From positions 4,156-68,155 of the forward strand of contig JBAXSC010000004.1 of NCBI GenBank assembly GCA_037130925.1: a stretch of DNA of 64,000 nt. Reading direction: 5' to 3'. Under the pieces are notes generated by a model. The model was not told the DNA's origin and made no database searches. It saw only the letters and a program-made list of their open reading frames with translations. Position numbers and translations under genes: made by a program. Of this stretch, positions 4,281 to 33,484 are shown one piece after another. How positions within the stretch are numbered: position 1 is the stretch's first letter; every line of letters starts with the position of its first letter. The DNA is from Candidatus Nomurabacteria bacterium (lineage in GTDB: Bacteria > Patescibacteriota > Minisyncoccia > Phycocordibacterales > UBA5272).

Positions 4281-5846
4281 TTATTTTTCTATCTTCTCAT
4301 TATGAGATTTTATTTTTTGCCTATTCGTTTCAAAATTAATTAATAAAAATAAAACTACATAAATCACAAAAAGTGAAAATGTTGAAATAGAAAATTCTAT
4401 TTGTGAAAATGGTAAGTGAGAAATAAATCTCGCAACTGAAAAAATAAATTCACAAAAAATATAAGAAACATATCCAAAGAAAACAGAAATGAAATTTGCA
4501 AAAAACGAAAACAAAATTATCAAAACAGAAAACAGCATCACAGTCGGAACAAATGGCACAGCTAAAATATTTGCAAAAATTCCAAAGATAGAAATTTTTC
4601 CAAAAGTAAAAATTGTATAAGGCATGACCATGAGTTGCACAGCAAGAGTGACTTTTAAAATTTCTGAAATACTAAAAAATATTTTTTTAATAAATTTATT
4701 TTCTATTTTATCTAAATTCAAAATTTTATAATTATTAAAAATAGGTACGAGATACAAAATTCCAAGTGTCGCTAAAAATGATAAATGAAATGAAACATCA
4801 GACAAAGCTATTTCTGGATTTAAAATCATCATCACAAAAGCAGAGATAAAGAGAGCTTGTCTTGCGACATATTGTCTGCCATATAGCGAAGCCAATAATA
4901 AAGTTGATCCCATTATTCCAGCCCTAACAATTGATGCTCCAGCTCCGACAAATAAGATAAAAAATATTATAGAAAAAATTGAAAGCGTTACACGCCAAAA
5001 AAGTCTCAGATTTAATAATGAAAAAATATAAATTAATATAAAAATTAAAATAGTAATATTAAATCCAGATAAGACAATTATATGTGAAATGCCTGCTATA
5101 CGAAAATCATTTATATCTTCTTTACTAAGGAGAGATGAATCCCCCAGTAATGTACCAGCCGATAATGCTGCTGTATCTATATTAGTATCTTTCTCTAAAA
5201 TTTTCACAAATTGAGTCTTAATATTTTCTAATTTATATAAAATATTTCCTGAACTGTTTTGAGAAACGATTTGAATTTTTGGAAAGGACGTTTCACCATT
5301 TATACCCGACAATTTATTTTTAATTTGTGAGTCAAAAGATTTATTATTTTGTTCTAAATTAGGAAGAATAATGTTCTCTGTTTTTATTTTTCCAGTCACT
5401 AAAATTTTATCTCCTGCTTTATATAGAGGAAAAAGACTTGTAGTGATTTTAATTTTAAAAATATCTTGCTTAAAATTTTCATCTTCTATATTCAAAGTAA
5501 AATTTTGCGAATTTTGTGAAATGGAAACGTTGCTAATAATTCCTGAAAAGTCATTTTGATGTGAAATGGCGTTTTGGAATTCAGACTCACGAGAGAGAGA
5601 AGAGGATAGATTTAGTTGTCCAAACAAGATACCGAGAGACAAAATTAAAAAGAAAAAAGTAAGAATGGTTGGTATTTGTGACTTGTAGACACCGAATGAT
5701 CTTTTTGTAAATTTATGAACTAAAAAATTAGAGACAGATAAAAGTAGTGAAACAAGAAATATTTCTGTAGAGAAATTTGCTGTGAAAGCAATAATTAATC
5801 CAAAGAATAATCCGAGAGTGATAGCAACTATATATTTATAGTACAT
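4281..5846 (-). CDS. comEC: ComEC/Rec2 competence channel, membrane part
   Basis: 521 aa, polytopic. An N-terminal OB-like region (KITTSLFPLYKAGDKILVTGKI) is followed by the competence domain (ISHIIVLSGFNITIL, GAGASIVRAGIMG). Confidence 0.8.
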   Translation of the reverse strand: MYYKYIVAITLGLFFGLIIAFTANFSTEIFLVSLLLSVSNFLVHKFTKRSFGVYKSQIPTILTFFFLILSLGILFGQLNLSSSLSRESEFQNAISHQNDFSGIISNVSISQNSQNFTLNIEDENFKQDIFKIKITTSLFPLYKAGDKILVTGKIKTENIILPNLEQNNKSFDSQIKNKLSGINGETSFPKIQIVSQNSSGNILYKLENIKTQFVKILEKDTNIDTAALSAGTLLGDSSLLSKEDINDFRIAGISHIIVLSGFNITILIFILIYIFSLLNLRLFWRVTLSIFSIIFFILFVGAGASIVRAGIMGSTLLLASLYGRQYVARQALFISAFVMMILNPEIALSDVSFHLSFLATLGILYLVPIFNNYKILNLDKIENKFIKKIFFSISEILKVTLAVQLMVMPYTIFTFGKISIFGIFANILAVPFVPTVMLFSVLIILFSFFANFISVFFGYVSYIFCEFIFSVARFISHLPFSQIEFSISTFSLFVIYVVLFLLINFETNRQKIKSHNEKIEK

Positions 5847-6743: not shown

Positions 6744-8048
6744 ATGTTAGATATCAAAGCTTTAAATCTTGCTCTTGCAACAATAGAACAAGAAAAAAAA
6801 ATATCTCGTGAAAAAATTATTGATGCTGTAGAAAAATCTTTAGCTGCAGCTTATCAAAAAGAATACGGGAAAAAAGGACAACTTATCCGTTGTAATATAA
6901 ATTTTGATACAGGAGAAACAACTTTCGAACAAATCAAAATCGTCGTTGATGAAAGTACTGTGAGAATAGTAGAAGAAGATGAAGAAGAAAATACATCTTC
7001 AGAAAGTTATGAGACAGAAGAAGGAGAAATAGTTTTACCTCGTTACAATGAAGAAAAACACATTTTAATTTCTACAGCAAAACTTTTAAAGAAGAGCGCT
7101 GAACTTGGAGAAGAAATTACTTTTTCCCTAGAGAATCAAAATGACTTTGGACGTATCGCTGCTCAAACAGCAAAACAAGTTATAGTACAAAAAATCCGTG
7201 AAGCAGAAAACGAATCAATCTCAAGTGAATTCGAAAGTAAAGAAGGAGAAATAGTTTCTGGTGTTGTACAAAGAGTAGAGAGAGGAAATTTATTTATTGA
7301 CTTAGGAAGAACAACTGCGATTATTCCTTTTGAGGAACAAATTAAATCAGAAAGATTTCATCCAGGACAAAGAATTAAAGCATATCTATTTTCTCTTGAA
7401 GAAGGAGTTAGAGGACTATCGATTCGCCTATCAAGAAGTCATCCTAAATTCTTAATTGAATTATTCAAAAGTGAATCAAGTGAGATAGCAGATGGAACAG
7501 TTGAAATAGTTGCAGTAGCGCGTGAGCCAGGAACTCGTTCAAAGATCGCTGTTAAAAGTAATGATGAGAGAGTTGATCCTATCGGAGCTTGTGTTGGTCA
7601 ACGTGGAGTGAGAGTAAATGCGATCAGTAATGAGCTTGGTGGAGAAAAAATCGACATCATAGAATGGAGTGATGATATCAAGAAAAACATTTCTGCATCA
7701 TTATCTCCTGCAAAAGTTTTAAGTATTGAAATAAACGAAGAAGAGAAAAAAGCTTCTGTGAAAGTAAGCGTCGAGGAACAATCTCTAGCTATCGGACGTG
7801 GAGGACAAAATGTTCGCCTTGCTGCAAAATTAACAGGATGGAGAATTGATGTTGCAAGTGAAGGTGGAGATTTAATTGTTGAAGCTGATGAAGAAGGACT
7901 AGTGGATGCTGAAGTATTAAAAGATTCGCCTGAGGCTCATGGAGAAACTATCGAAGAAGAGATCGCAGAAGTGATAGAAGAAAACGAAAACAAATCAGAA
8001 GAAGATGTAAACCATTCAGCTGAAGAGCAAAAAATTATTGAAGAATAA
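6744..8048 (+). CDS. nusA: Transcription termination/antitermination factor NusA
   Basis: An S1-like segment (GEIVSGVVQRVERGNLFIDLG) and two KH motifs (GACVGQRGVRVNAISNELGGEKIDII; LAIGRGGQNVRLAAKLTGWRIDV). Confidence 0.9.
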   Translation: MLDIKALNLALATIEQEKKISREKIIDAVEKSLAAAYQKEYGKKGQLIRCNINFDTGETTFEQIKIVVDESTVRIVEEDEEENTSSESYETEEGEIVLPRYNEEKHILISTAKLLKKSAELGEEITFSLENQNDFGRIAAQTAKQVIVQKIREAENESISSEFESKEGEIVSGVVQRVERGNLFIDLGRTTAIIPFEEQIKSERFHPGQRIKAYLFSLEEGVRGLSIRLSRSHPKFLIELFKSESSEIADGTVEIVAVAREPGTRSKIAVKSNDERVDPIGACVGQRGVRVNAISNELGGEKIDIIEWSDDIKKNISASLSPAKVLSIEINEEEKKASVKVSVEEQSLAIGRGGQNVRLAAKLTGWRIDVASEGGDLIVEADEEGLVDAEVLKDSPEAHGETIEEEIAEVIEENENKSEEDVNHSAEEQKIIEE

Positions 8049-8613: not shown

Positions 8614-9768
8614 ATGAAAACAAAAATTGAAAATCTAGACAATGGAGAAAAAAAGATAACAGTAACTCTAGAAAATTCTGAGTTCGAAAAATATCACGAC
8701 AAAGGTTTTAGGAAAGTACAAGAGTTTGCAGAAATAGACGGATTCAGAAAAGGTAATGCTCCTGAAAATCTAGTAGTAGAAAAATATGGAGAGATGGTCG
8801 TCTTAGAAGAAATGGCTCACCTAGTAATAAATGACACTTACTATCCAGCTCTCATAAAAGAGAATGAAGATAAAAAAGAAGAAGACAAAATCTTACCTAT
8901 CTCAAATCCAAAAATATCTATTACTAAAATTGGAAAAGGTTCAGATTTTGAATACGAAGCAACATTTGCAGTATTACCGAAAGTAGAAACAGCTGACTAT
9001 AAAAAAATCTCTAAAGAAGAATCTAAAAAAGTTCTAGAAACAGAATTAGAGGAATTGAAAAAGAAAGATGAAAATGCAAAATTAGAAGATCTTAAAATAA
9101 CAACAGACAAAGAAGTTGATGAAATCTTAGAAAATTTAAGAAAAGCTAGAAATGTAGGTTCACACATTCATGAAGATGGAACTGTTCATAATGAAGGACA
9201 TGAAGAGGGAGAAAATTTGGAAAAAGAATTAGAAGAAGAAACTTTACCAGAATTCGATGATGCATTCGCTCAAAGTTTTGGAGATAATTTCAAGACAATG
9301 GAAGACTTAAAAAATAAGATTAAAGAAAATCTTGCTTTAGAAAAAAATGCAAAGCTTTTAGATAAACAAAGAAATTATATTCTTGAAAGATTAGTAAATG
9401 AATCAAAAATAAATTTACCAGAAATCTTAGTTGAAGATGAGCTTGAAAAAATGAAAGCAACAATGAAGACAGATATCGAAAGATATGGAAGTACATGGGA
9501 TGAGTATATTACACATTTAAATAAGACAGAAGAAGATCTTAAAAAAGATTGGAGAGAGACAGCAGAAAAAAGATCAAAGTCACAATTAATCTTAAATGAT
9601 ATTGCTAAGAAAGAAAAAATAGAAGTATCAAAAGATGAAATTTATGCAGAAGCATTAAAGATTTTAAATCAAATGCCAGAAGCGAATGAAGATCATGTAA
9701 ATAGTTATGTCGCTCAAATTCTATTAAATGAAAAAGTAATGAAATTGTTAGATAGTGAAATGAATTAG
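8614..9768 (+). CDS. tig: Trigger factor lacking the central PPIase domain
   Basis: The N-terminal ribosome-binding signature EIDGFRKGNAP is present. The C-terminal arm begins at LPEFDDAFAQSFG. Only a ~30-aa His/Glu-rich linker sits where the FKBP domain would be. Confidence 0.8.
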   Translation: MKTKIENLDNGEKKITVTLENSEFEKYHDKGFRKVQEFAEIDGFRKGNAPENLVVEKYGEMVVLEEMAHLVINDTYYPALIKENEDKKEEDKILPISNPKISITKIGKGSDFEYEATFAVLPKVETADYKKISKEESKKVLETELEELKKKDENAKLEDLKITTDKEVDEILENLRKARNVGSHIHEDGTVHNEGHEEGENLEKELEEETLPEFDDAFAQSFGDNFKTMEDLKNKIKENLALEKNAKLLDKQRNYILERLVNESKINLPEILVEDELEKMKATMKTDIERYGSTWDEYITHLNKTEEDLKKDWRETAEKRSKSQLILNDIAKKEKIEVSKDEIYAEALKILNQMPEANEDHVNSYVAQILLNEKVMKLLDSEMN

Positions 9769-9792
9769 TTTTAAAAAACAAATAATTAAAAA

Positions 9793-9819
9793 ACCGAAGA
9801 ATTTATTCTTCGGTTTTTT
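9793..9819. terminator. Bidirectional rho-independent terminator
   Basis: ACCGAAGAA-ttta-TTCTTCGGT with an A-run upstream and a T-run downstream. Confidence 0.8.
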
Positions 9820-9840
9820 AATACAGAATTATCAAACTAA

Positions 9841-9906
9841 CACTATCAGACCACAAATAATATTTATGAGCTGAATAATGAAAAGGAAGATTTCTCTTCC
9901 TTTTTT
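9841..9906 (-). repeat. Repeat module copy A (truncated) plus hairpin
   Basis: cactatcagaccacaaata-atatttatgagctgaataatg matches copies B and C. It is followed by an AGGAAGA-tttc-TCTTCCT hairpin. Confidence 0.7.
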
Positions 9907-9914
9907 AAATTCAA

Positions 9915-10205
9915 TTAACTGGAACCACAGGCTTTTAATAATTCATCCCTATAATCAATAAATTTTTGCATATCCTCTTTTTCACTTTCTTCATAACAAA
10001 CTTTTACAGGAAGAATTTCTTTTGCTTTCTTTGAAAAATCTTCTAGTTTTTTCTTACTTAAAATTTGTCCGACCTTACCCTCTTCGAATATTGCATCAAC
10101 TTTTGCAGGATCATTACTTTTAACCATTTCATATAATACGGTAATAGCAAATTTTTTTACCGCTTCTTTCCTAATTAAATTTCTAAAAGTTGCCACTTTT
10201 CTCAT
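9915..10205 (-). CDS. Hypothetical small protein (cassette ORF 1)
   Basis: ORF with an ATG at 10205 (MRKVATFRNLIRK...). The track start at 10229 is a TTG inside the repeat module. Confidence 0.5.
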   Translation of the reverse strand: MRKVATFRNLIRKEAVKKFAITVLYEMVKSNDPAKVDAIFEEGKVGQILSKKKLEDFSKKAKEILPVKVCYEESEKEDMQKFIDYRDELLKACGSS

Positions 10206-10219
10206 TTTCTTTGATTTTA

Positions 10220-10319
10220 TAATGAACAAATATTTTTATCACAATCAGACCACAAATTATTTTTAAATTTATGAGCTGAATAATGTGGACGATTTTAATT
10301 TTAGGCTCGTCCATTTTTT
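10220..10319 (-). repeat. Repeat module copy B (promoter-like) plus hairpin
   Basis: About 66 bp is nearly identical to copy C. On the minus strand it reads TTGTGA-17 nt-TATAAA, ending 10 nt before the ORF 1 ATG. Upstream of it is a GGACGA...TCGTCC hairpin. Confidence 0.7.
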
Positions 10320-10361
10320 CCTATCAGTTATTTAAAGCTTTACTGACACATCTGTGACGTC

Positions 10362-10670
10362 TTATTTTTTTCTTTGTTTTAATTCCTCCACTTTTTCACA
10401 AAACTCATACACATCCCCATCAACAGAAATAGCGTTATTAATCCAAAAACCAAAAGATATTTTTGATTTTTTAAAATCACAACCATTTCCATTCTTCTTT
10501 AATTCTTCCACTTGTGTACTAGTAAAATTACGACCTTTTGCTATTCTTGTAAGAATTCTTTTCAAAATAGCAGTTTCATAATTTTCATTTTCTATAAAAA
10601 AGTTTTTTACCGGACAAGATTGTTCCCATGATTCATGTCGAACAATTTTTAAAAGATAACCTCTTTTCAT
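10362..10670 (-). CDS. Hypothetical small protein (cassette ORF 2)
   Basis: ORF with an ATG at 10670 (MKRGYLLKIVRHESW...). No recognisable similarity to ORF 1. Confidence 0.5.
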   Translation of the reverse strand: MKRGYLLKIVRHESWEQSCPVKNFFIENENYETAILKRILTRIAKGRNFTSTQVEELKKNGNGCDFKKSKISFGFWINNAISVDGDVYEFCEKVEELKQRKK

Positions 10671-10682
10671 ATACAAACCTTA

Positions 10683-10780
10683 ATAATGAACAAATATTTT
10701 TATCACTATCAATCCACAAATTATTTTTAAATTTATGAACTGAATAATGAGGGCAAACTTAGACAAGTTCGCCCGTTTTA
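10683..10780 (-). repeat. Repeat module copy C (promoter-like) plus hairpin
   Basis: taatgaacaaatatttttatcactatcaatccacaaattatttttaaatttatgaactgaataatg, followed by a GGGCAAACTT-agac-AAGTTCGCCC hairpin. Confidence 0.7.
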
Positions 10781-10809
10781 ATCACATTTAAAATTACCCT
10801 TATAAGAAA

Positions 10810-10977
10810 TTATCGACTACCGTTTCCCATTGGCGTCATTATAATCGTCTTTCTTTCAAAGAACTTTTGCTGAGGTGAAAAGTTTTTCTTAGGAGACCCG
10901 TCAAATCTATATCCCGAATCAGTAAGAAGTTTGTTTGCTAATGCATAGACTTCTGCTTTAGTAAGTTTCTTTCCCAT
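10810..10977 (-). CDS. Unlisted small ORF (55 aa), hypothetical
   Basis: Hand translation gives MGKKLTKAEVYALANKLLTDSGYRFDGSPKKNFSPQQKFFERKTIIMTPMGNGSR, ending in TAA. It is below the apparent size cut-off of the ORF track and is followed by hairpin C. Confidence 0.35.
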   Translation of the reverse strand: MGKKLTKAEVYALANKLLTDSGYRFDGSPKKNFSPQQKFFERKTIIMTPMGNGSR

Positions 10978-11096
10978 AATTTAATTAATTAAAATTATTA
11001 TTATTTTTAAACCTAAGTAATAATATCACTCATATTTTTAAAAAAGTAAAAAATATGACAATTTGTAAATACTTTTGTAAAATATTAATAAAATGA

Positions 11097-11126
11097 TTGA
11101 CAAATAATAGATAAAAAGTGTAAAAT
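11097..11126 (+). promoter_or_regulatory. Sigma70-type promoter
   Basis: TTGACA (11097-11102), an 18-nt spacer that includes TG, then TAAAAT (11121-11126), 24 nt before the ATG at 11150. Confidence 0.6.
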
Positions 11127-11149
11127 ATAATTACAATTAATATAAAAAT

Positions 11150-11869
11150 ATGAAATATAAGGCCGCTTTAATGAAAATAGGAATGAAAGATGACGAAGCT
11201 ATAGTATATGAAACATTGCTAGAAGAAGGAGAATCTAATATTCTAAACCTGTCTTATAAAACAAATATAAATAGGCCTGCACTTTATATTCTTATACCAA
11301 AAATGATAAAAAAGGATTTAATAGTAGAAATTAAAAAGAATAAAAGAATACTTTATTCAGCAGTATCACCAGACAAATTAGATACTTTAGTTAAAAATTC
11401 ACAAAAAGATCTAGAAAATATAATAAATAATTTGAATACAGAATATTCTAAAAAGAACATAATACCGAAAATAGAAGTCTATTATGGTGAAGATGGAATA
11501 AAAAGAATATTCTTAGATATTTTAACTTCTGTTAAAAAAGAATCAGAAATATTAAGATATAGTTCTGTGTTAGAATTTAAAAAAGATTATAGACCAAAAG
11601 ATTTTGGAAAAAACTTAAGAGATAAAAAAGTTGAGACTTTGGTTATAACTAATACAGAAATCAAAGAAAAAAATGATATAAAAAATAACTTATATACAAT
11701 GGTTAAAACTCTTGATAATTATATAAATGTAAACAATGTATCAAAAACTATATATGAAAATAAAATAGCTCATATAGACTATGAAAATGAAGTTGGATTT
11801 ATTATGTATAATGAAAAAATAACAAAAATGGAAAAAGAAATTTTTATGAGTTTGTGGAGAAAAATATAA
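11150..11869 (+). CDS. TrmB-like winged-helix transcriptional regulator (putative)
   Basis: The N-terminus LMKIGMKDDEAIVYETLLEEGESNILNLSYKTNINRPALYILIPKMIKKDLI resembles the TrmB-family HTH. Confidence 0.5.
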   Translation: MKYKAALMKIGMKDDEAIVYETLLEEGESNILNLSYKTNINRPALYILIPKMIKKDLIVEIKKNKRILYSAVSPDKLDTLVKNSQKDLENIINNLNTEYSKKNIIPKIEVYYGEDGIKRIFLDILTSVKKESEILRYSSVLEFKKDYRPKDFGKNLRDKKVETLVITNTEIKEKNDIKNNLYTMVKTLDNYINVNNVSKTIYENKIAHIDYENEVGFIMYNEKITKMEKEIFMSLWRKI

Positions 11870-11895
11870 TAAATCTAGTTTAAAAATAAACAATT

Positions 11896-11927
11896 AAAAA
11901 ACCGAAGAATAAATTCTTAGGTTTTTT
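11896..11927. terminator. Bidirectional terminator between convergent genes
   Basis: AAAAACCGAAGAAT-aaa-TTCTTAGGTTTTTT. Confidence 0.7.
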
Positions 11928-11932
11928 AATTG

Positions 11933-12442
11933 TTAAGCCGCTTTTCCTATATCATCATTTTTATCTAAGTTTTCTATTTTTTCTATTTGTTGTGTCTGAC
12001 TATCTGCAGATTCTTTTTTATTTTCATCTTTATTTAAAAATCTAAATCCTAATCTACCTGACATGTTTTTGGCTGAAAATGTTTTTTCAATACCATTTAT
12101 TAAACTTGAAGAATTTTTATTTAAATAAGCACCACATATCTCACATTTACAATCATCCAAATGTCCTAAATTTACAAGATACTGTTCTGCTTCATTCCTT
12201 AAAAATCCACCAGTTGTCCAATAAATTTCATTTAAGTCCTCTACTGAATTCTTATATTTTTTTATAATATAAGTTTTCATTTCATTTACAATTTTACTAT
12301 CAAAACCAAATTCTTTTCCTGCTTTTTTATACAAAAGAATTTCATCTTTTATATTATTTAACGATTCTAATTCTTTTATGTATCCATTTAGCTCTTTTTC
12401 TACTGTTTGTTTTTTATTATTAAAAGATTCTCCAAATTTCAT
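11933..12442 (-). CDS. Hypothetical protein
   Basis: 169-aa ORF with a CKCEIC cysteine cluster. Confidence 0.4.
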   Translation of the reverse strand: MKFGESFNNKKQTVEKELNGYIKELESLNNIKDEILLYKKAGKEFGFDSKIVNEMKTYIIKKYKNSVEDLNEIYWTTGGFLRNEAEQYLVNLGHLDDCKCEICGAYLNKNSSSLINGIEKTFSAKNMSGRLGFRFLNKDENKKESADSQTQQIEKIENLDKNDDIGKAA

Positions 12443-12470
12443 ATATTTATATTATTATAAATTAATTATA

Positions 12471-13199
12471 CTACTTTTGGTCAATAATTTTAAAACTTCC
12501 AACTACTGCCGCAGTTTCAGCTCTTAAAGTATTTTTACCAAATGAAACGATCTTTAGATCATAATCTTTAAACATTTTTCTTTCATTTTCTGTCCAACCA
12601 CCTTCTGGTCCAATAAACAAGTAAAAATCATCTTTTATATCTAAATTATTTGTTGTGAAACTTTCTTCAGAAATATCACAAATCAAGATTTTACTTAATT
12701 TACCCTCTCTTTTAAAGTCTTTAAACATATTTTCGAGCTTTATAGGCTCACAAATAGTCGGAATATTCCCCCATCCAGATTGCTCAACACTTTCTATTAT
12801 TATTTTTTGGACTCTTTCTAGATTAAAACTAGCTATATTTTTCTTTTCTACCCTTTCAGATATCAGAGGAATATAATTTAAAACCCCTATTTCTGTACAT
12901 TTTTCTAAAATCAAATCTAAATTATCTTTTTTAATTAAAGATACACATAAATTTAAATTTCTTTTTTCTAATTTTTGATCTAAAGAAGCTACACTTTCTA
13001 TTAATTTTAATTTCACAAAACTCTTACTAATAGATTCTATTCTAAAAACAAAGTCTAATAATTTTTCATCATTAAACAAAACCAGACTTTCGCCTGTTTT
13101 AAATTTTAAAACATTATTCCATTGATGGAGTAATTGTTTTTCTTTTATTTCCATCTCTTCACCAAGAGGTTGTTTTACAAAAAATCTATGCAACTTCAT
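12471..13199 (-). CDS. rsmE: 16S rRNA (uracil1498-N3)-methyltransferase RsmE
   Basis: Starts MKLHRFFV, the typical RsmE N-terminus. C-terminal motifs GPEGGWTENE and LRAETAAV. The track start at 13250 is probably too far upstream. Confidence 0.8.
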   Translation of the reverse strand: MKLHRFFVKQPLGEEMEIKEKQLLHQWNNVLKFKTGESLVLFNDEKLLDFVFRIESISKSFVKLKLIESVASLDQKLEKRNLNLCVSLIKKDNLDLILEKCTEIGVLNYIPLISERVEKKNIASFNLERVQKIIIESVEQSGWGNIPTICEPIKLENMFKDFKREGKLSKILICDISEESFTTNNLDIKDDFYLFIGPEGGWTENERKMFKDYDLKIVSFGKNTLRAETAAVVGSFKIIDQK

Positions 13200-20467: not shown

Positions 20468-20540
20468 CGGAGTGTAGTGTAACGGCTAACATTCTGGTTT
20501 TGGGTACCAGCGACTCAGGGTTCGAATCCCTGCACTCCGA
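20468..20540 (+). tRNA. tRNA-Pro (TGG)
   Basis: Cloverleaf with acceptor CGGAGTG/CACTCCG, anticodon loop ttTGGgt and T-loop GTTCGAATC. No CCA is encoded. Confidence 0.9.
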
Positions 20541-21362: not shown

Positions 21363-21652
21363 ATCTCTTCCTCAAATGATCGCAATCTTTAACTTATTTT
21401 AAAGATTGAGGAAAGTCGGAACACATACACTGAGCTTGTCGAAGTGTTAAAATGATAGCGGGTAACGCCCGTCCGCCGTGAGGCGAGAGTTGCGAACAGT
21501 GACGAACCGATTTAGTTCGGATGAAACGGCAAAATACTTATCTGTGTGCAAGGCCGTGCTTCAAAAATTTTGAAGAGTGCCGCTTGAGAGTATTAGTAAT
21601 AATATTCCTAGATAAATGATCATATAAACAGAATTCCGCTTATGAGAAGAGA
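21363..21652 (+). ncRNA. rnpB: RNase P RNA (bacterial type A, compact)
   Basis: GAGGAAAGTCGGAAC (P4 5' strand), GGGTAACGCCCGTCC and ACAGAATTCCGCTTA (P4 3' strand). The terminal P1 helix pairs CTCTTC with GAGAAGAG. Confidence 0.9.
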
Positions 21653-21755
21653 AAATGAAAAGTCGCTCCCTTAAAGGTGTGATTTTTCATTTTTAAATAA
21701 AAATTTATTTATAGATTTTGTAAAAGTAAAATTTTATGATAATATATTAACTAAT

Positions 21756-32446: not shown

Positions 32447-33484
32447 CTAACTTCTTTCTTTTCCGTGGAATTTTTTAAATTGATCTTTTAAGAATTTATT
32501 TGTAACATTGGTATAAATCTGAGTTGTAGAAATAGAAGCATGACCAAGCATCATTTGCACAGTACGAAGATCCGCACCGTTACGAAGGAGATCTGTCGCA
32601 AAAGAGTGGCGAAGAACATGAGGAGTACACTTTTTTGAAATACCCGCAAACTCTGCATACTTTTTTATTATTCTTTCTATTGATCGAGAAGTGAGACGTA
32701 AATCTTTTCCGTCTGAAGTTCTACCTGAAGAAGTAAAAGATAAATCAATAAACATAGAATCATCAACATCTACTCTTTCTTTTAAATATTTTTTTATTGA
32801 ATCAATTGCAGCATCAGAAAAAAATACAACTCTTATTTTTCCACCTTTTCCACGAACAGATATTTCACCATTTGATAAATCCTCATCACAATCGAGAGAG
32901 CAAAGCTCTGAGACACGGAGCCCTGTCGAAAAGAAAGTTTCTAAAATAGCTTTATCGCGAAGTGAAGTTAAAAATAATTTCTGTCTAAAATTTTCTGTAT
33001 TTTTGTTTTTCTTCACATCAGTATCTTTTGATTTTAGTTCATAAAAATCTTTTGGTGCATTCAGTAAATTTTCAAGATCTTTTTCTGAAATCAAATCTAA
33101 TTCTCTCTGTGAAGTTTTTGCTAATTCTATTTTTTCTGGATCATAAATTAAATCTCCTTTTTTACGACAATATTTTAAAAATGCTCTGAGTGCTATCAAG
33201 TGATAATTCTGAGTTTTTTTATCTAGAGTTTCAGAGAGTTTATTTTTAGAAGACTTGTTTGCACCAGAGGGAAGACGGTTTAAATAAAGTCTATATTCAC
33301 GCATTGATCTATCATCTACAGAACTGAGTTTATTTTGTTCTAAAAATTTAATAAATCTAGTAATATAATGATCATAATTACGAACAGTCAAAAGTGAACG
33401 ACCTTTTTCTATTTCTACGTATTCTAGAAAATTATTCTTTAGATTTATTAACTCTTTTGAATAAATATTTTGCGACATGTACAT
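32447..33484 (-). CDS. Tyrosine recombinase, XerC/XerD-like
   Basis: An N-terminal SAM-like domain. The catalytic region has GLRVSE, HVLRHSFAT and LGHASISTTQIYT. It is longer than typical Xer proteins because of Lys-rich insertions. Confidence 0.8.
   Translation of the reverse strand: MYMSQNIYSKELINLKNNFLEYVEIEKGRSLLTVRNYDHYITRFIKFLEQNKLSSVDDRSMREYRLYLNRLPSGANKSSKNKLSETLDKKTQNYHLIALRAFLKYCRKKGDLIYDPEKIELAKTSQRELDLISEKDLENLLNAPKDFYELKSKDTDVKKNKNTENFRQKLFLTSLRDKAILETFFSTGLRVSELCSLDCDEDLSNGEISVRGKGGKIRVVFFSDAAIDSIKKYLKERVDVDDSMFIDLSFTSSGRTSDGKDLRLTSRSIERIIKKYAEFAGISKKCTPHVLRHSFATDLLRNGADLRTVQMMLGHASISTTQIYTNVTNKFLKDQFKKFHGKERS

Follow-up and report, generated by a model that had tools for sequence, protein, structure and literature searches.

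A repeated two-hairpin module between the small genes of a Nomurabacteria array as a candidate cistron boundary at the RNA level

Arrays punctuated by hammerhead ribozymes and processing hairpins between cistrons are both known kinds of element. Among the early genes of phage T7, RNase III hairpins lie between the cistrons, and cleavage leaves a 3' hairpin on the upstream mRNA (Dunn and Studier). Clustered hammerheads flank single genes of changing identity in prophage-like regions, and they cut transcripts of about 2 kb in vitro (Perreault et al. 2011, PMC3088659). The locus described here lies in a 64-kb stretch of DNA from a Candidatus Nomurabacteria bacterium (contig JBAXSC010000004.1), the whole of which is called the window below; a public contig of 16.8 kb matches it exactly. 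Three small genes on the minus strand are each followed there by a copy of one repeat, and the repeat folds, as minus-strand RNA, into two abutting hairpins that we call P1 and P2. Where another gene follows, a short, conserved, AU-rich box (the P box) precedes it.

The array resembles the clustered hammerhead arrays (PMC3088659) in its small, one-orientation genes of changing identity, in the RNA elements that lie between them on the coding strand, and in the proposed cutting of a long transcript into gene-length mRNAs; furthermore, its sister arrays carry type-III hammerheads. It differs from them in being chromosomal rather than prophage-like, in being accompanied by a conserved 55-aa protein (ORF55) and a TrmB-like gene, and in carrying P1-P2 at the junctions of the window. 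With the T7 hairpins it shares repeated, sequence-conserved hairpins of about 20 bp, with a bulge or internal loop, between cistrons; in this case the cleavage is conjectural, an extra GC hairpin (P1) is stacked on P2, a leader box is added, and the sequences are not similar. The attC arrays of integrons offer a third comparison, since they too contain small, unrelated and often orphan genes in one orientation, imperfect palindromes with an extrahelical base, and gene content that varies between strains. An integron integrase, attI and attC ends are nevertheless lacking here, and G·U pairing together with the equivalence to hammerheads points to RNA. The hairpin family, its interchangeability with the hammerhead, and the ORF55/TrmB array in candidate-phyla bacteria are absent from Rfam and from the literature searched.

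The reading that we favor, at a probability of roughly 0.55, is that the repeat is a cistron-boundary module acting at the RNA level on the minus strand, composed of a 3' hairpin, a processing site and a leader box, and that it is not a promoter. The operon would then belong to a family of TrmB-linked, ORF55-headed arrays of small genes that vary between strains, with the grammar of gene, P1, P2 hairpin or hammerhead, P box and next gene.

The three open reading frames (ORFs) on the minus strand lie between tig and the TrmB-like gene. Read along that strand they are ORF55 (10810-10977), ORF_B (10362-10670, 102 aa) and ORF_A (9915-10205, 96 aa), and the copies that follow them are C (10680-10774), B (10216-10313) and A (9840-9904), all on the minus strand and the sole copies in the 64 kb. 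Both halves of the core, one of 19 nt and one of 21 nt, occur three times in the window, versus 0.09 and 0.01 occurrences expected, and the repeat is real, far beyond chance. An initial annotation of this DNA had placed three copies at these positions, and both the core-half counts and a covariance model bear it out. It had also put copies B and C at about 94% identity over 66 nt, which agrees with the four differences that we count; over 82 nt the two are 88% identical.

Within each module the GC-rich hairpin P1 abuts the long, AU-rich hairpin P2, which takes up the entire 46-nt core and contains 19-20 bp, one bulged U and several G·U pairs. Three elements are present in copy C: P1c (10751-10774), which follows ORF55 directly, abuts P2c and folds as a 10-bp GC hairpin capped by a tetraloop; P2c itself (10703-10750), a hairpin of about 20 bp with the bulged U; and P box c (AUAUUUGUUCAUUAUUAA, 10680-10697), whose UUGUUC starts 23 nt before the ORF_B start codon. 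The corresponding elements of copy B are P1b (10287-10312), with a 6-bp GC stem and the loop GCCUAAAAUUAAAA, P2b (10239-10286, again supported by folding) and P box b (AUAUUUGUUCAUUAUAAA, 10216-10233), whose UUGUUC starts 24 nt before the start codon of ORF_A. Copy A consists of the 10-bp hairpin P1a after ORF_A (9881-9904, by folding) and P2a (9840-9881), where the core has a 6-nt deletion that is confined to the P2 loop, with the stem unaffected. Neither a P box nor a gene comes after P2a, which runs into the tig terminator, and the identical arrangement is found in the related contig L003. The conserved box AUAUUUGUUCAUU thus stands after P2 in copies B and C, where a next gene follows, and within the window it has close copies (0-1 mismatch) at just two places, both in the array. 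Every array gene has P1-P2 after it, and every gene except the first has a P box before it; P2a is the 3' module of the last cistron, ORF_A. A pairing between the P box and the start codon was considered and dropped, as CAU is replaced by CUU in several relatives.

The structure is specific to one strand. Minus-strand RNA of the three copies folds with -20.6, -32.8 and -23.5 kcal/mol (z -4.5, -8.2 and -5.2), compared with -17.2, -12.8 and -16.2 kcal/mol for the plus strand of the same segments; the strongest of them, P1c with P2c, has a z score of -8.2 on the minus strand and -2.0 on the plus strand. A covariance model of the P2 hairpin (R1) finds exactly three matches in the window, all on the minus strand, at 59.4 (P2a), 59.2 (P2c) and 57.9 bits (P2b).

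Relatives were found by exact-pattern scans and through homologues of ORF_A, ORF_B and ORF55. The exact-pattern scan of metagenomes gave one true relative, L003. The scan of species-representative genomes gave no true copy (two chance matches, in coding DNA of Flavobacteriaceae), the scan of viral contigs for the core gave one chance match, and two broader scans of viral contigs, for P2 with P box and for hammerhead with P box, gave nothing. The related arrays lie in Nomurabacteria/Pacebacteria-type contigs and share a recurrent context, in which 0.6-1.35 kb without ORFs separates a TrmB-like gene of 247-253 aa from ORF55, and small ORFs in the same orientation come next. They are chromosomal, beside tig/rsmE or RNase Y/ClpP, and no phage genes were seen at them. 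ORF55 co-occurs with P2 in every array examined, and the TrmB-like gene, whose proximity to the array of the window had been remarked upon in the initial annotation, is linked to the arrays in nearly every relative retrieved.

P2 is present in every related array retrieved, and always on the coding strand. R1 recognizes 27 sites in the window and seven relatives (24 of them in the relatives), with further sites in L021-L025; the reverse strand scores 16-24 bits versus 49-56 bits. Among 23 distinct P2 copies, in an alignment fitted to the model, 89.1% of cells pair versus 74.1% after shuffling, and compensatory changes are seen at 12 of the 19 pairs. The covariation score is 0.426 versus 0.160 for shuffled alignments, a value reached by none of 500 shuffles, and controls with slid partners give 0.04-0.08. 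RNAalifold recovers the same helix, with compensatory changes in seven of ten pairs. The replacements can also be seen in the raw sequences, where the distal stem of GC-richer relatives reads CAUCAC/GUGGUG, CCAUCAA/UUGGUGG or CUCAG/CUGGG. Three P2 variants, pairing 5' strand CAUUAUUCAG with 3' strand CUGAUAGUG, CAUUUUUGAG with UUCAAAAUG, and CUUUAUCAAAAUC with GAUUUUGUAGAG, differ in the lower stem and keep its pairing; the most conserved part is the central C-A-U-A-A-A/U-U-U-G-U-G block. The likeness of one 3' strand, CUGAUAGUGA, to the CUGAUGA box of the hammerhead is taken to be a coincidence, the other two variants being without it. G·U pairs make up 66 of 431 cells (15%) and would be A·C mismatches on the opposite strand; they work only on the coding strand, which argues for an RNA read from the minus strand rather than a folded DNA. 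As judged from the alignment, the covariation is strong enough for a candidate new RNA family to be defined.

Further evidence for a function in RNA comes from what occupies the same slot in the relatives. Six type-III hammerheads were identified with Rfam on the coding strand of related arrays (L003 2979-3033 and 4552-4607, L007 2537-2591, L013 5716-5771, L017 7380-7433 and L012 7874-7929), with scores of 41.4-48.0 bits (E 1e-7 to 9e-6) that all fall just under the gathering score of 48.5. All six have complete CUGAUGA, GAAA and GUC/GUA cores, and each lies between two array genes, the one at L003 2979-3033 being typical. A hairpin abuts the hammerhead in four of the six, and a P box follows within a few nucleotides in four of the six; the same P box follows P2 in many junctions of the relatives. 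A type-III hammerhead would cut about 7 nt beyond P1, and the upstream RNA would keep P1 at its 3' end.

We model these arrangements as a single transcript with punctuation. ORF55, ORF_B and ORF_A would share one RNA that starts at a promoter upstream of ORF55, and P1 would end or protect the 3' end of each upstream cistron. P2 would be an endonucleolytic processing site, equivalent to the type-III hammerhead of the sister arrays; RNase III is the most likely enzyme because a helix of about 20 bp is stacked on P1. Indeed, the feature expected of an RNase III site, about two turns of double-stranded RNA with a bulge between cistrons, is present in the 19-20 bp of P2 with its bulged U, stacked on the 6-10 bp of P1. 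The P box would serve as leader for translation of the next gene, and the near-identical modules could double as homology patches for gene swaps between strains.

Several points weigh against this model. We infer the enzyme, the cleavage at P2 and, for the window, the polycistronic transcript. No hammerhead was found in the whole window at E<=0.01, or in 9700-12600 at E<=10. Hammerhead and P2 are not strict alternatives, since one P2 (4296-4343) and one hammerhead (4552-4607) share an intergenic stretch of L003. The alignment used for covariation, being fitted to the model, favors structure. The window contains no counterpart of a promoter and leader that relatives have upstream of ORF55 (see below). 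Most P boxes contain a -10-like TAAAA(A/T/C), which in copies B and C lies 17 nt from TTGTGA or TAGTGA. Finally, P1 with its U-rich tail could be a real, leaky terminator, and the downstream genes would then need a promoter of their own.

Leaky termination combined with an internal promoter is indeed the main rival. In its explicit form each P1 is a private terminator followed by a repeated sigma-70 promoter, so that each gene would be read from its own, nearly leaderless mRNA, possibly regulated by TrmB. The initial annotation had cast the core in this role, and the elements that it quoted for copies B and C, TTGTGA-17 nt-TATAAA and TAGTGA-17 nt-TATTAA, are correct in sequence and spacing and are flagged at 9 of 12 matches; the direct repeat TTGTGG...TTGTGA has a spacing of 5 nt, not the 6 nt given. 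The terminator scan flags P1c on the minus strand as terminator-like, and a U-rich stretch follows P1 in all variants. The P box holds its TAAAA-like element at a fixed distance from the ATG, and a TrmB-like gene is nearby in nearly every relative.

The promoter reading fares poorly when the copies are compared with one another and with their relatives. The proposed -35 element is the basal 3' strand of P2, where the sequence changes with the variant while pairing is kept, so that the position reads TTGTGA, AAATGA, AATCGG or TAGAGA. The -10 position reads CAAAAA or TAAAAC in the GC-richer relatives, and the -35 and -10 hexamers are present only in copies B and C. Junctions with a hammerhead keep the P box and have no -35 element at 16-18 nt. 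Promoter-like matches in the region are no commoner than in shuffled sequence (22 versus 20.5, and 19 versus 16.7). By contrast, four relatives have a conserved, canonical sigma-70 promoter, cTTGACAAAt-N16/17-cTGcTAtACT, upstream of ORF55 (L012 at about 5395-5432, with aligned sites in L019, L021 and L017); in L012 and L019 it lies about 600 nt upstream, with a non-coding leader between, and parts of the leader are about 70% conserved between lineages. L003 has TTGACA-17-TAAATT preceded by TG at 2539-2567, 147 nt upstream of ORF55. P1-P2-P box also precedes ORF55 itself in L012, L013 and L019, which fits a long transcript punctuated by modules. A promoter would furthermore leave the strand-specific G·U pairing and the compensatory changes unexplained. 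Copy A retains a -35 region with no -10, P box or gene, which is expected of the 3' module of ORF_A and not of a promoter; the earlier description of copy A as having no ORF behind it and running into the tig terminator was accurate. We consider a repeated promoter in the core unlikely, yet a weak or unusual promoter within the P box is possible.

The status of P1 bears on the same question. In the relatives P1 is a GC hairpin of arbitrary sequence, placed 0-1 nt before every P2, and the tails that follow read CAUUAUU or CAUUUUU, with 4-5 U in 7-8 nt. It is plausible that the preceding gene has its 3' end at the hairpin before the core, and some of the transcripts may terminate at P1 where CAUUAUU follows. 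The private terminators of the initial annotation are thus plausible as 3' ends, but they are not all unrelated, since the hairpin of copy B belongs to a P1 class (class 1) with the conserved loop GCCUnnnAGUAAAA and covarying stems that is found in at least six places in the relatives. Its stems there are GGACGA/UCGUCC, GGACAC/GUGUCC, GCACGA/UCGUGC and GGGCGA/UCGCCC, and the loop of P1b is 14 nt long. With the loop GCCUnnnAGUAAAA[U/G] conserved and a 5-6-bp stem covarying, the class was observed at 10293-10306 in the window, at L003 3928-3944, 4268-4282 and 5264-5278, and at several sites in L012 and L013. The same hairpin stands before a hammerhead in L003 (about 2925-2955) and is solitary at L013 4454-4484. 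Class-1 P1 hairpins may be a separate element that binds protein or RNA.

A broader proposal would combine several of these observations: P1-P2 as a new RNA-processing element that replaces the hammerhead, whether as a self-cleaving class or as a nuclease site, and that together with the P box defines an integrase-free cassette system under the control of ORF55 and the TrmB-like protein. We regard this as quite improbable in its entirety.

The exchange of genes between modules is directly visible. The window and L003 share 94.6% identity over the stretch that runs from NusA by way of tig, ORF_A and P2b to position 10310, inside P1b, and 97.7% identity in rsmE. Their breakpoints fall at 10310 and 10806, and homology ends 29 nt upstream of the ORF55 start. 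Between ORF55 and P2b the window has one gene, ORF_B, whereas L003 has four (73, 124, 74 and 114 aa), along with two hammerheads and two P2 hairpins; in L007 the order is ORF57, a homologue of ORF_B, a hammerhead and other genes. L012 and L013 have an identical ORF55 and two differing blocks of genes; their homology is lost 8 nt short of an ATG, behind the P box, as well as 6 nt beyond a hammerhead and, just ahead of P1, 10-17 nt past stop codons. Certain cassette families are found again in the arrays of different lineages. The cassette-like character claimed at the outset is thereby upheld, since the genes between the modules differ among strains whose flanks are 95-98% identical, with the breakpoints at module edges. 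Synonymous divergence (dS) between the window and L003 is a mosaic (ORF_A 0.06, tig 0.23, ORF55 0.77), and because it varies by segment it indicates that, on this sequence comparison, segments of the array have different histories.

These exchanges raise the question of whether the modules are recombination sites that fold as single-stranded DNA, in the style of integron attC or IS200/IS605, and are served by a recombinase encoded elsewhere. One-orientation arrays with strain-variable cassettes were found in both comparisons (the window with L003 and L007, and L012 with L013), P2 is an imperfect palindrome with an extrahelical base like attC, and the breakpoints and the dS mosaic would fit. 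Even so, no recombinase is encoded in the 16.8-kb source contig or beside any related array examined. The sole tyrosine recombinase among the 20 ORFs of the window that were scanned (32447-33484, minus strand) lies 21.5 kb from the array and is Xer-like: it scores 227 bits against a cut-off of 220 with the XerA-type model and fails the integron integrase model TIGR02249 (107.7 against a cut-off of 265). The attC ends RYYYAAC/GTTRRRY are not found at the module boundaries, which read CAUUNUU... and ...GAUNGUG; the nearest GTT is the GTTCATT in the P box, which breaks the attC consensus. The hammerheads that take the same slot act in RNA. Modules of 46-80 nt that are nearly identical make ordinary homologous recombination enough for the swaps, and homologous exchange between these linkers is the simplest explanation of them. 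We give dedicated recombination sites very little credence.

P2 might instead be an operator in the mRNA, bound by the ORF55 product or another array protein that controls translation or stability. The sequence inside the helix is conserved beyond the needs of pairing, ORF55 accompanies P2 in every array examined, some arrays encode an RNA-binding protein of the Ro60 type, and the distance from P box to start codon is fixed. Against this, no family or structure match suggests that ORF55 binds RNA, a ribozyme in the same slot is left unexplained, and copy A has no downstream gene to control; the operator, too, seems very improbable.

A similarly small probability attaches to the idea that P1-P2, possibly together with nucleotides on either side, cleaves itself as a new class of ribozyme in place of the hammerhead. 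The search for RNAs by association with hammerheads has such a history, having led to twister-sister, pistol and hatchet. The RAGATH motifs are likewise structured RNAs found through hammerhead-bearing gene neighborhoods, and most of them have no known function; P1-P2, compared with them through Rfam only, matches no family, including the ribozyme classes from that search. No Rfam 15 family matches P1-P2 at E values up to 10 in this region of the window or in the relatives, including twister, twister-sister, pistol, hatchet, HDV-like and hairpin. The sharing of a position with hammerheads in the same arrays would agree with a ribozyme, as would the strong conservation within the helix, where a C-G, an A-U and a U·G pair are kept in 18-22 of the 23 P2 copies and the bulged U is conserved. 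The element nevertheless consists of two plain hairpins with no multi-helix junction, and P1 loops that range from a tetraloop to 14 nt make a conserved pseudoknot impossible; to our knowledge, all known small self-cleavers need tertiary architecture of that kind. The presence of P2 and a hammerhead in one intergenic stretch (L003 4296-4607) also speaks against replacement.

Plus-strand genes for small RNAs that are antisense to the 5' ends of the ORFs, in the manner of type I toxin-antitoxin systems, would accord with the T-run after each P1 on that strand of this AT-rich window and with TATAAT-like hexamers upstream, but we discount them almost entirely, as the plus strand folds far worse and scores far lower with the model (16-24 versus 49-56 bits), the GC-richer relatives have no opposite-strand T-run after P1, and the ORFs, hydrophilic and 96-102 aa long, are unlike type I toxins.

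The cistron-boundary module that we favor is embedded in a locus with the following surroundings. On one side the array is flanked by tig (8614-9768, plus strand) and by a bidirectional terminator palindrome (9785-9822) common to tig and, on the minus strand, to the array. On the other side a divergent intergenic region (10978-11149), in which the array promoter presumably sits, separates ORF55 from the TrmB-like gene (11150-11869, plus strand), which encodes a winged-helix regulator of 239 aa (Pfam TrmB, E 3e-11). Promoter-like matches occur on both strands of this region, and the best of them, TTGACA-18-TAAAAT at 11097-11126, points toward the TrmB-like gene. The regulator of the window is 33% identical to its L003 counterpart over the N-terminal 114 aa, with divergent orientation, and is a distant paralogue of the 247-253-aa proteins of the relatives. 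The initial annotation had described the three small ORFs, the TrmB-like gene, the tig terminator and the dissimilarity of ORF_A and ORF_B as they stand here, with one correction, the start of ORF_A being at 10205 rather than 10208.

Two further observations concern the borders of the locus. A near-copy of the tig terminator palindrome lies at 11876-11934 (compare 9781-9839; 85-88% identity over 52-59 nt), between the TrmB-like gene and a 169-aa ORF; the two palindromes bracket the array and the TrmB-like gene, and no others occur in the 64 kb. They may mark how a segment replaced the TrmB/leader region of L003. A 43-aa ORF at 10183-10314 (minus strand), called in the public contig L001 at 7616-7747, spans P1b, P2b and the P box, and has most likely been called in error. 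Two sister strains share a long, conserved hairpin (CCAAGACAUUUGAAAGGC...GCCUUUCAAAUGUUUUGG) upstream of ORF55, at L003 2620-2685 and L007 1295-1365; it is not in the window.

Of the array genes, ORF55 is conserved and the other two are orphans. ORF55, which ends in ...FFERKTIIMTPMGNGSR in the window, has 35 homologue clusters in Nomurabacteria/Pacebacteria-type contigs, and its C-terminus FFERKTVIMTPMGNGSR is almost invariant. With dN/dS ratios (nonsynonymous to synonymous divergence) of 0.08-0.28 for ORF55 and 0.26 for ORF_B, both are under purifying selection. ORF55 has no match in Pfam, NCBIfam or PDB, the best profile match against PDB being uS8 at E 0.33. ORF_B has a single homologue in 5.8 billion clusters (P0002, 70% identity, in the array of L007), and a profile search of 1.84 billion representatives returned nothing except ORF_B itself; its structure model is unusable, with a mean predicted local distance difference test score (pLDDT) of 39. 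A 95% identical copy of ORF_A is present in L003, L008, L010 and L011, and its AlphaFold model is all-helical (pLDDT 74), with no PDB fold neighbor at E<1. ORF_A and ORF_B show no mutual similarity at E<1e-3, and no paralogues of either were found in related arrays. The small proteins of the window match nothing above noise in Pfam, PHROGs, PADLOC or NCBIfam, and those of L003 nothing above noise in Pfam or PADLOC. No model of a defence, phage or other family matches any of the small ORFs, and no toxin, antitoxin or immunity role is proposed.

In some ORF55-headed arrays a 534-aa protein with Ro60/TROVE and vWA domains is encoded next to ORF55 (L017 3884-5488, L019 3529-5133 and L020 590-2194), and in L019 its gene is preceded by P1-P2-P box. 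Ro60, an RNA-surveillance protein, is thus associated with ribozyme-punctuated arrays (L017, L019, L020). ARAGORN found no tRNA-like or Y-RNA-like elements near the Ro60 arrays, and Rfam was blank in the long gap of L012. Elsewhere in the window, a bacterial RNase P RNA lies at 21364-21656 on the plus strand; at 97.9 bits it is just below the gathering score of 100 and was missed by the default scan, and tRNA genes lie nearby at 20468, 21756 and 21872.

The bacteria of the candidate phyla, with their tiny genomes, have hardly been studied by experimental genetics, and the organization of their gene expression is largely unknown. If P2 is only an RNase III site next to a leaky terminator, then the locus is a neat but ordinary operon architecture. 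The locus shows a reusable grammar in which a plain conserved hairpin and a self-cleaving ribozyme interchange. If P2 is a cleavage site, the module would provide a natural insulation of each gene of the operon from its neighbors, and would also be a handle for spotting arrays of this kind in metagenomes. Between near-identical strains the arrays are hot spots where genes turn over with no visible recombinase, and this is relevant to the way in which reduced genomes gain small orphan genes and try them out.

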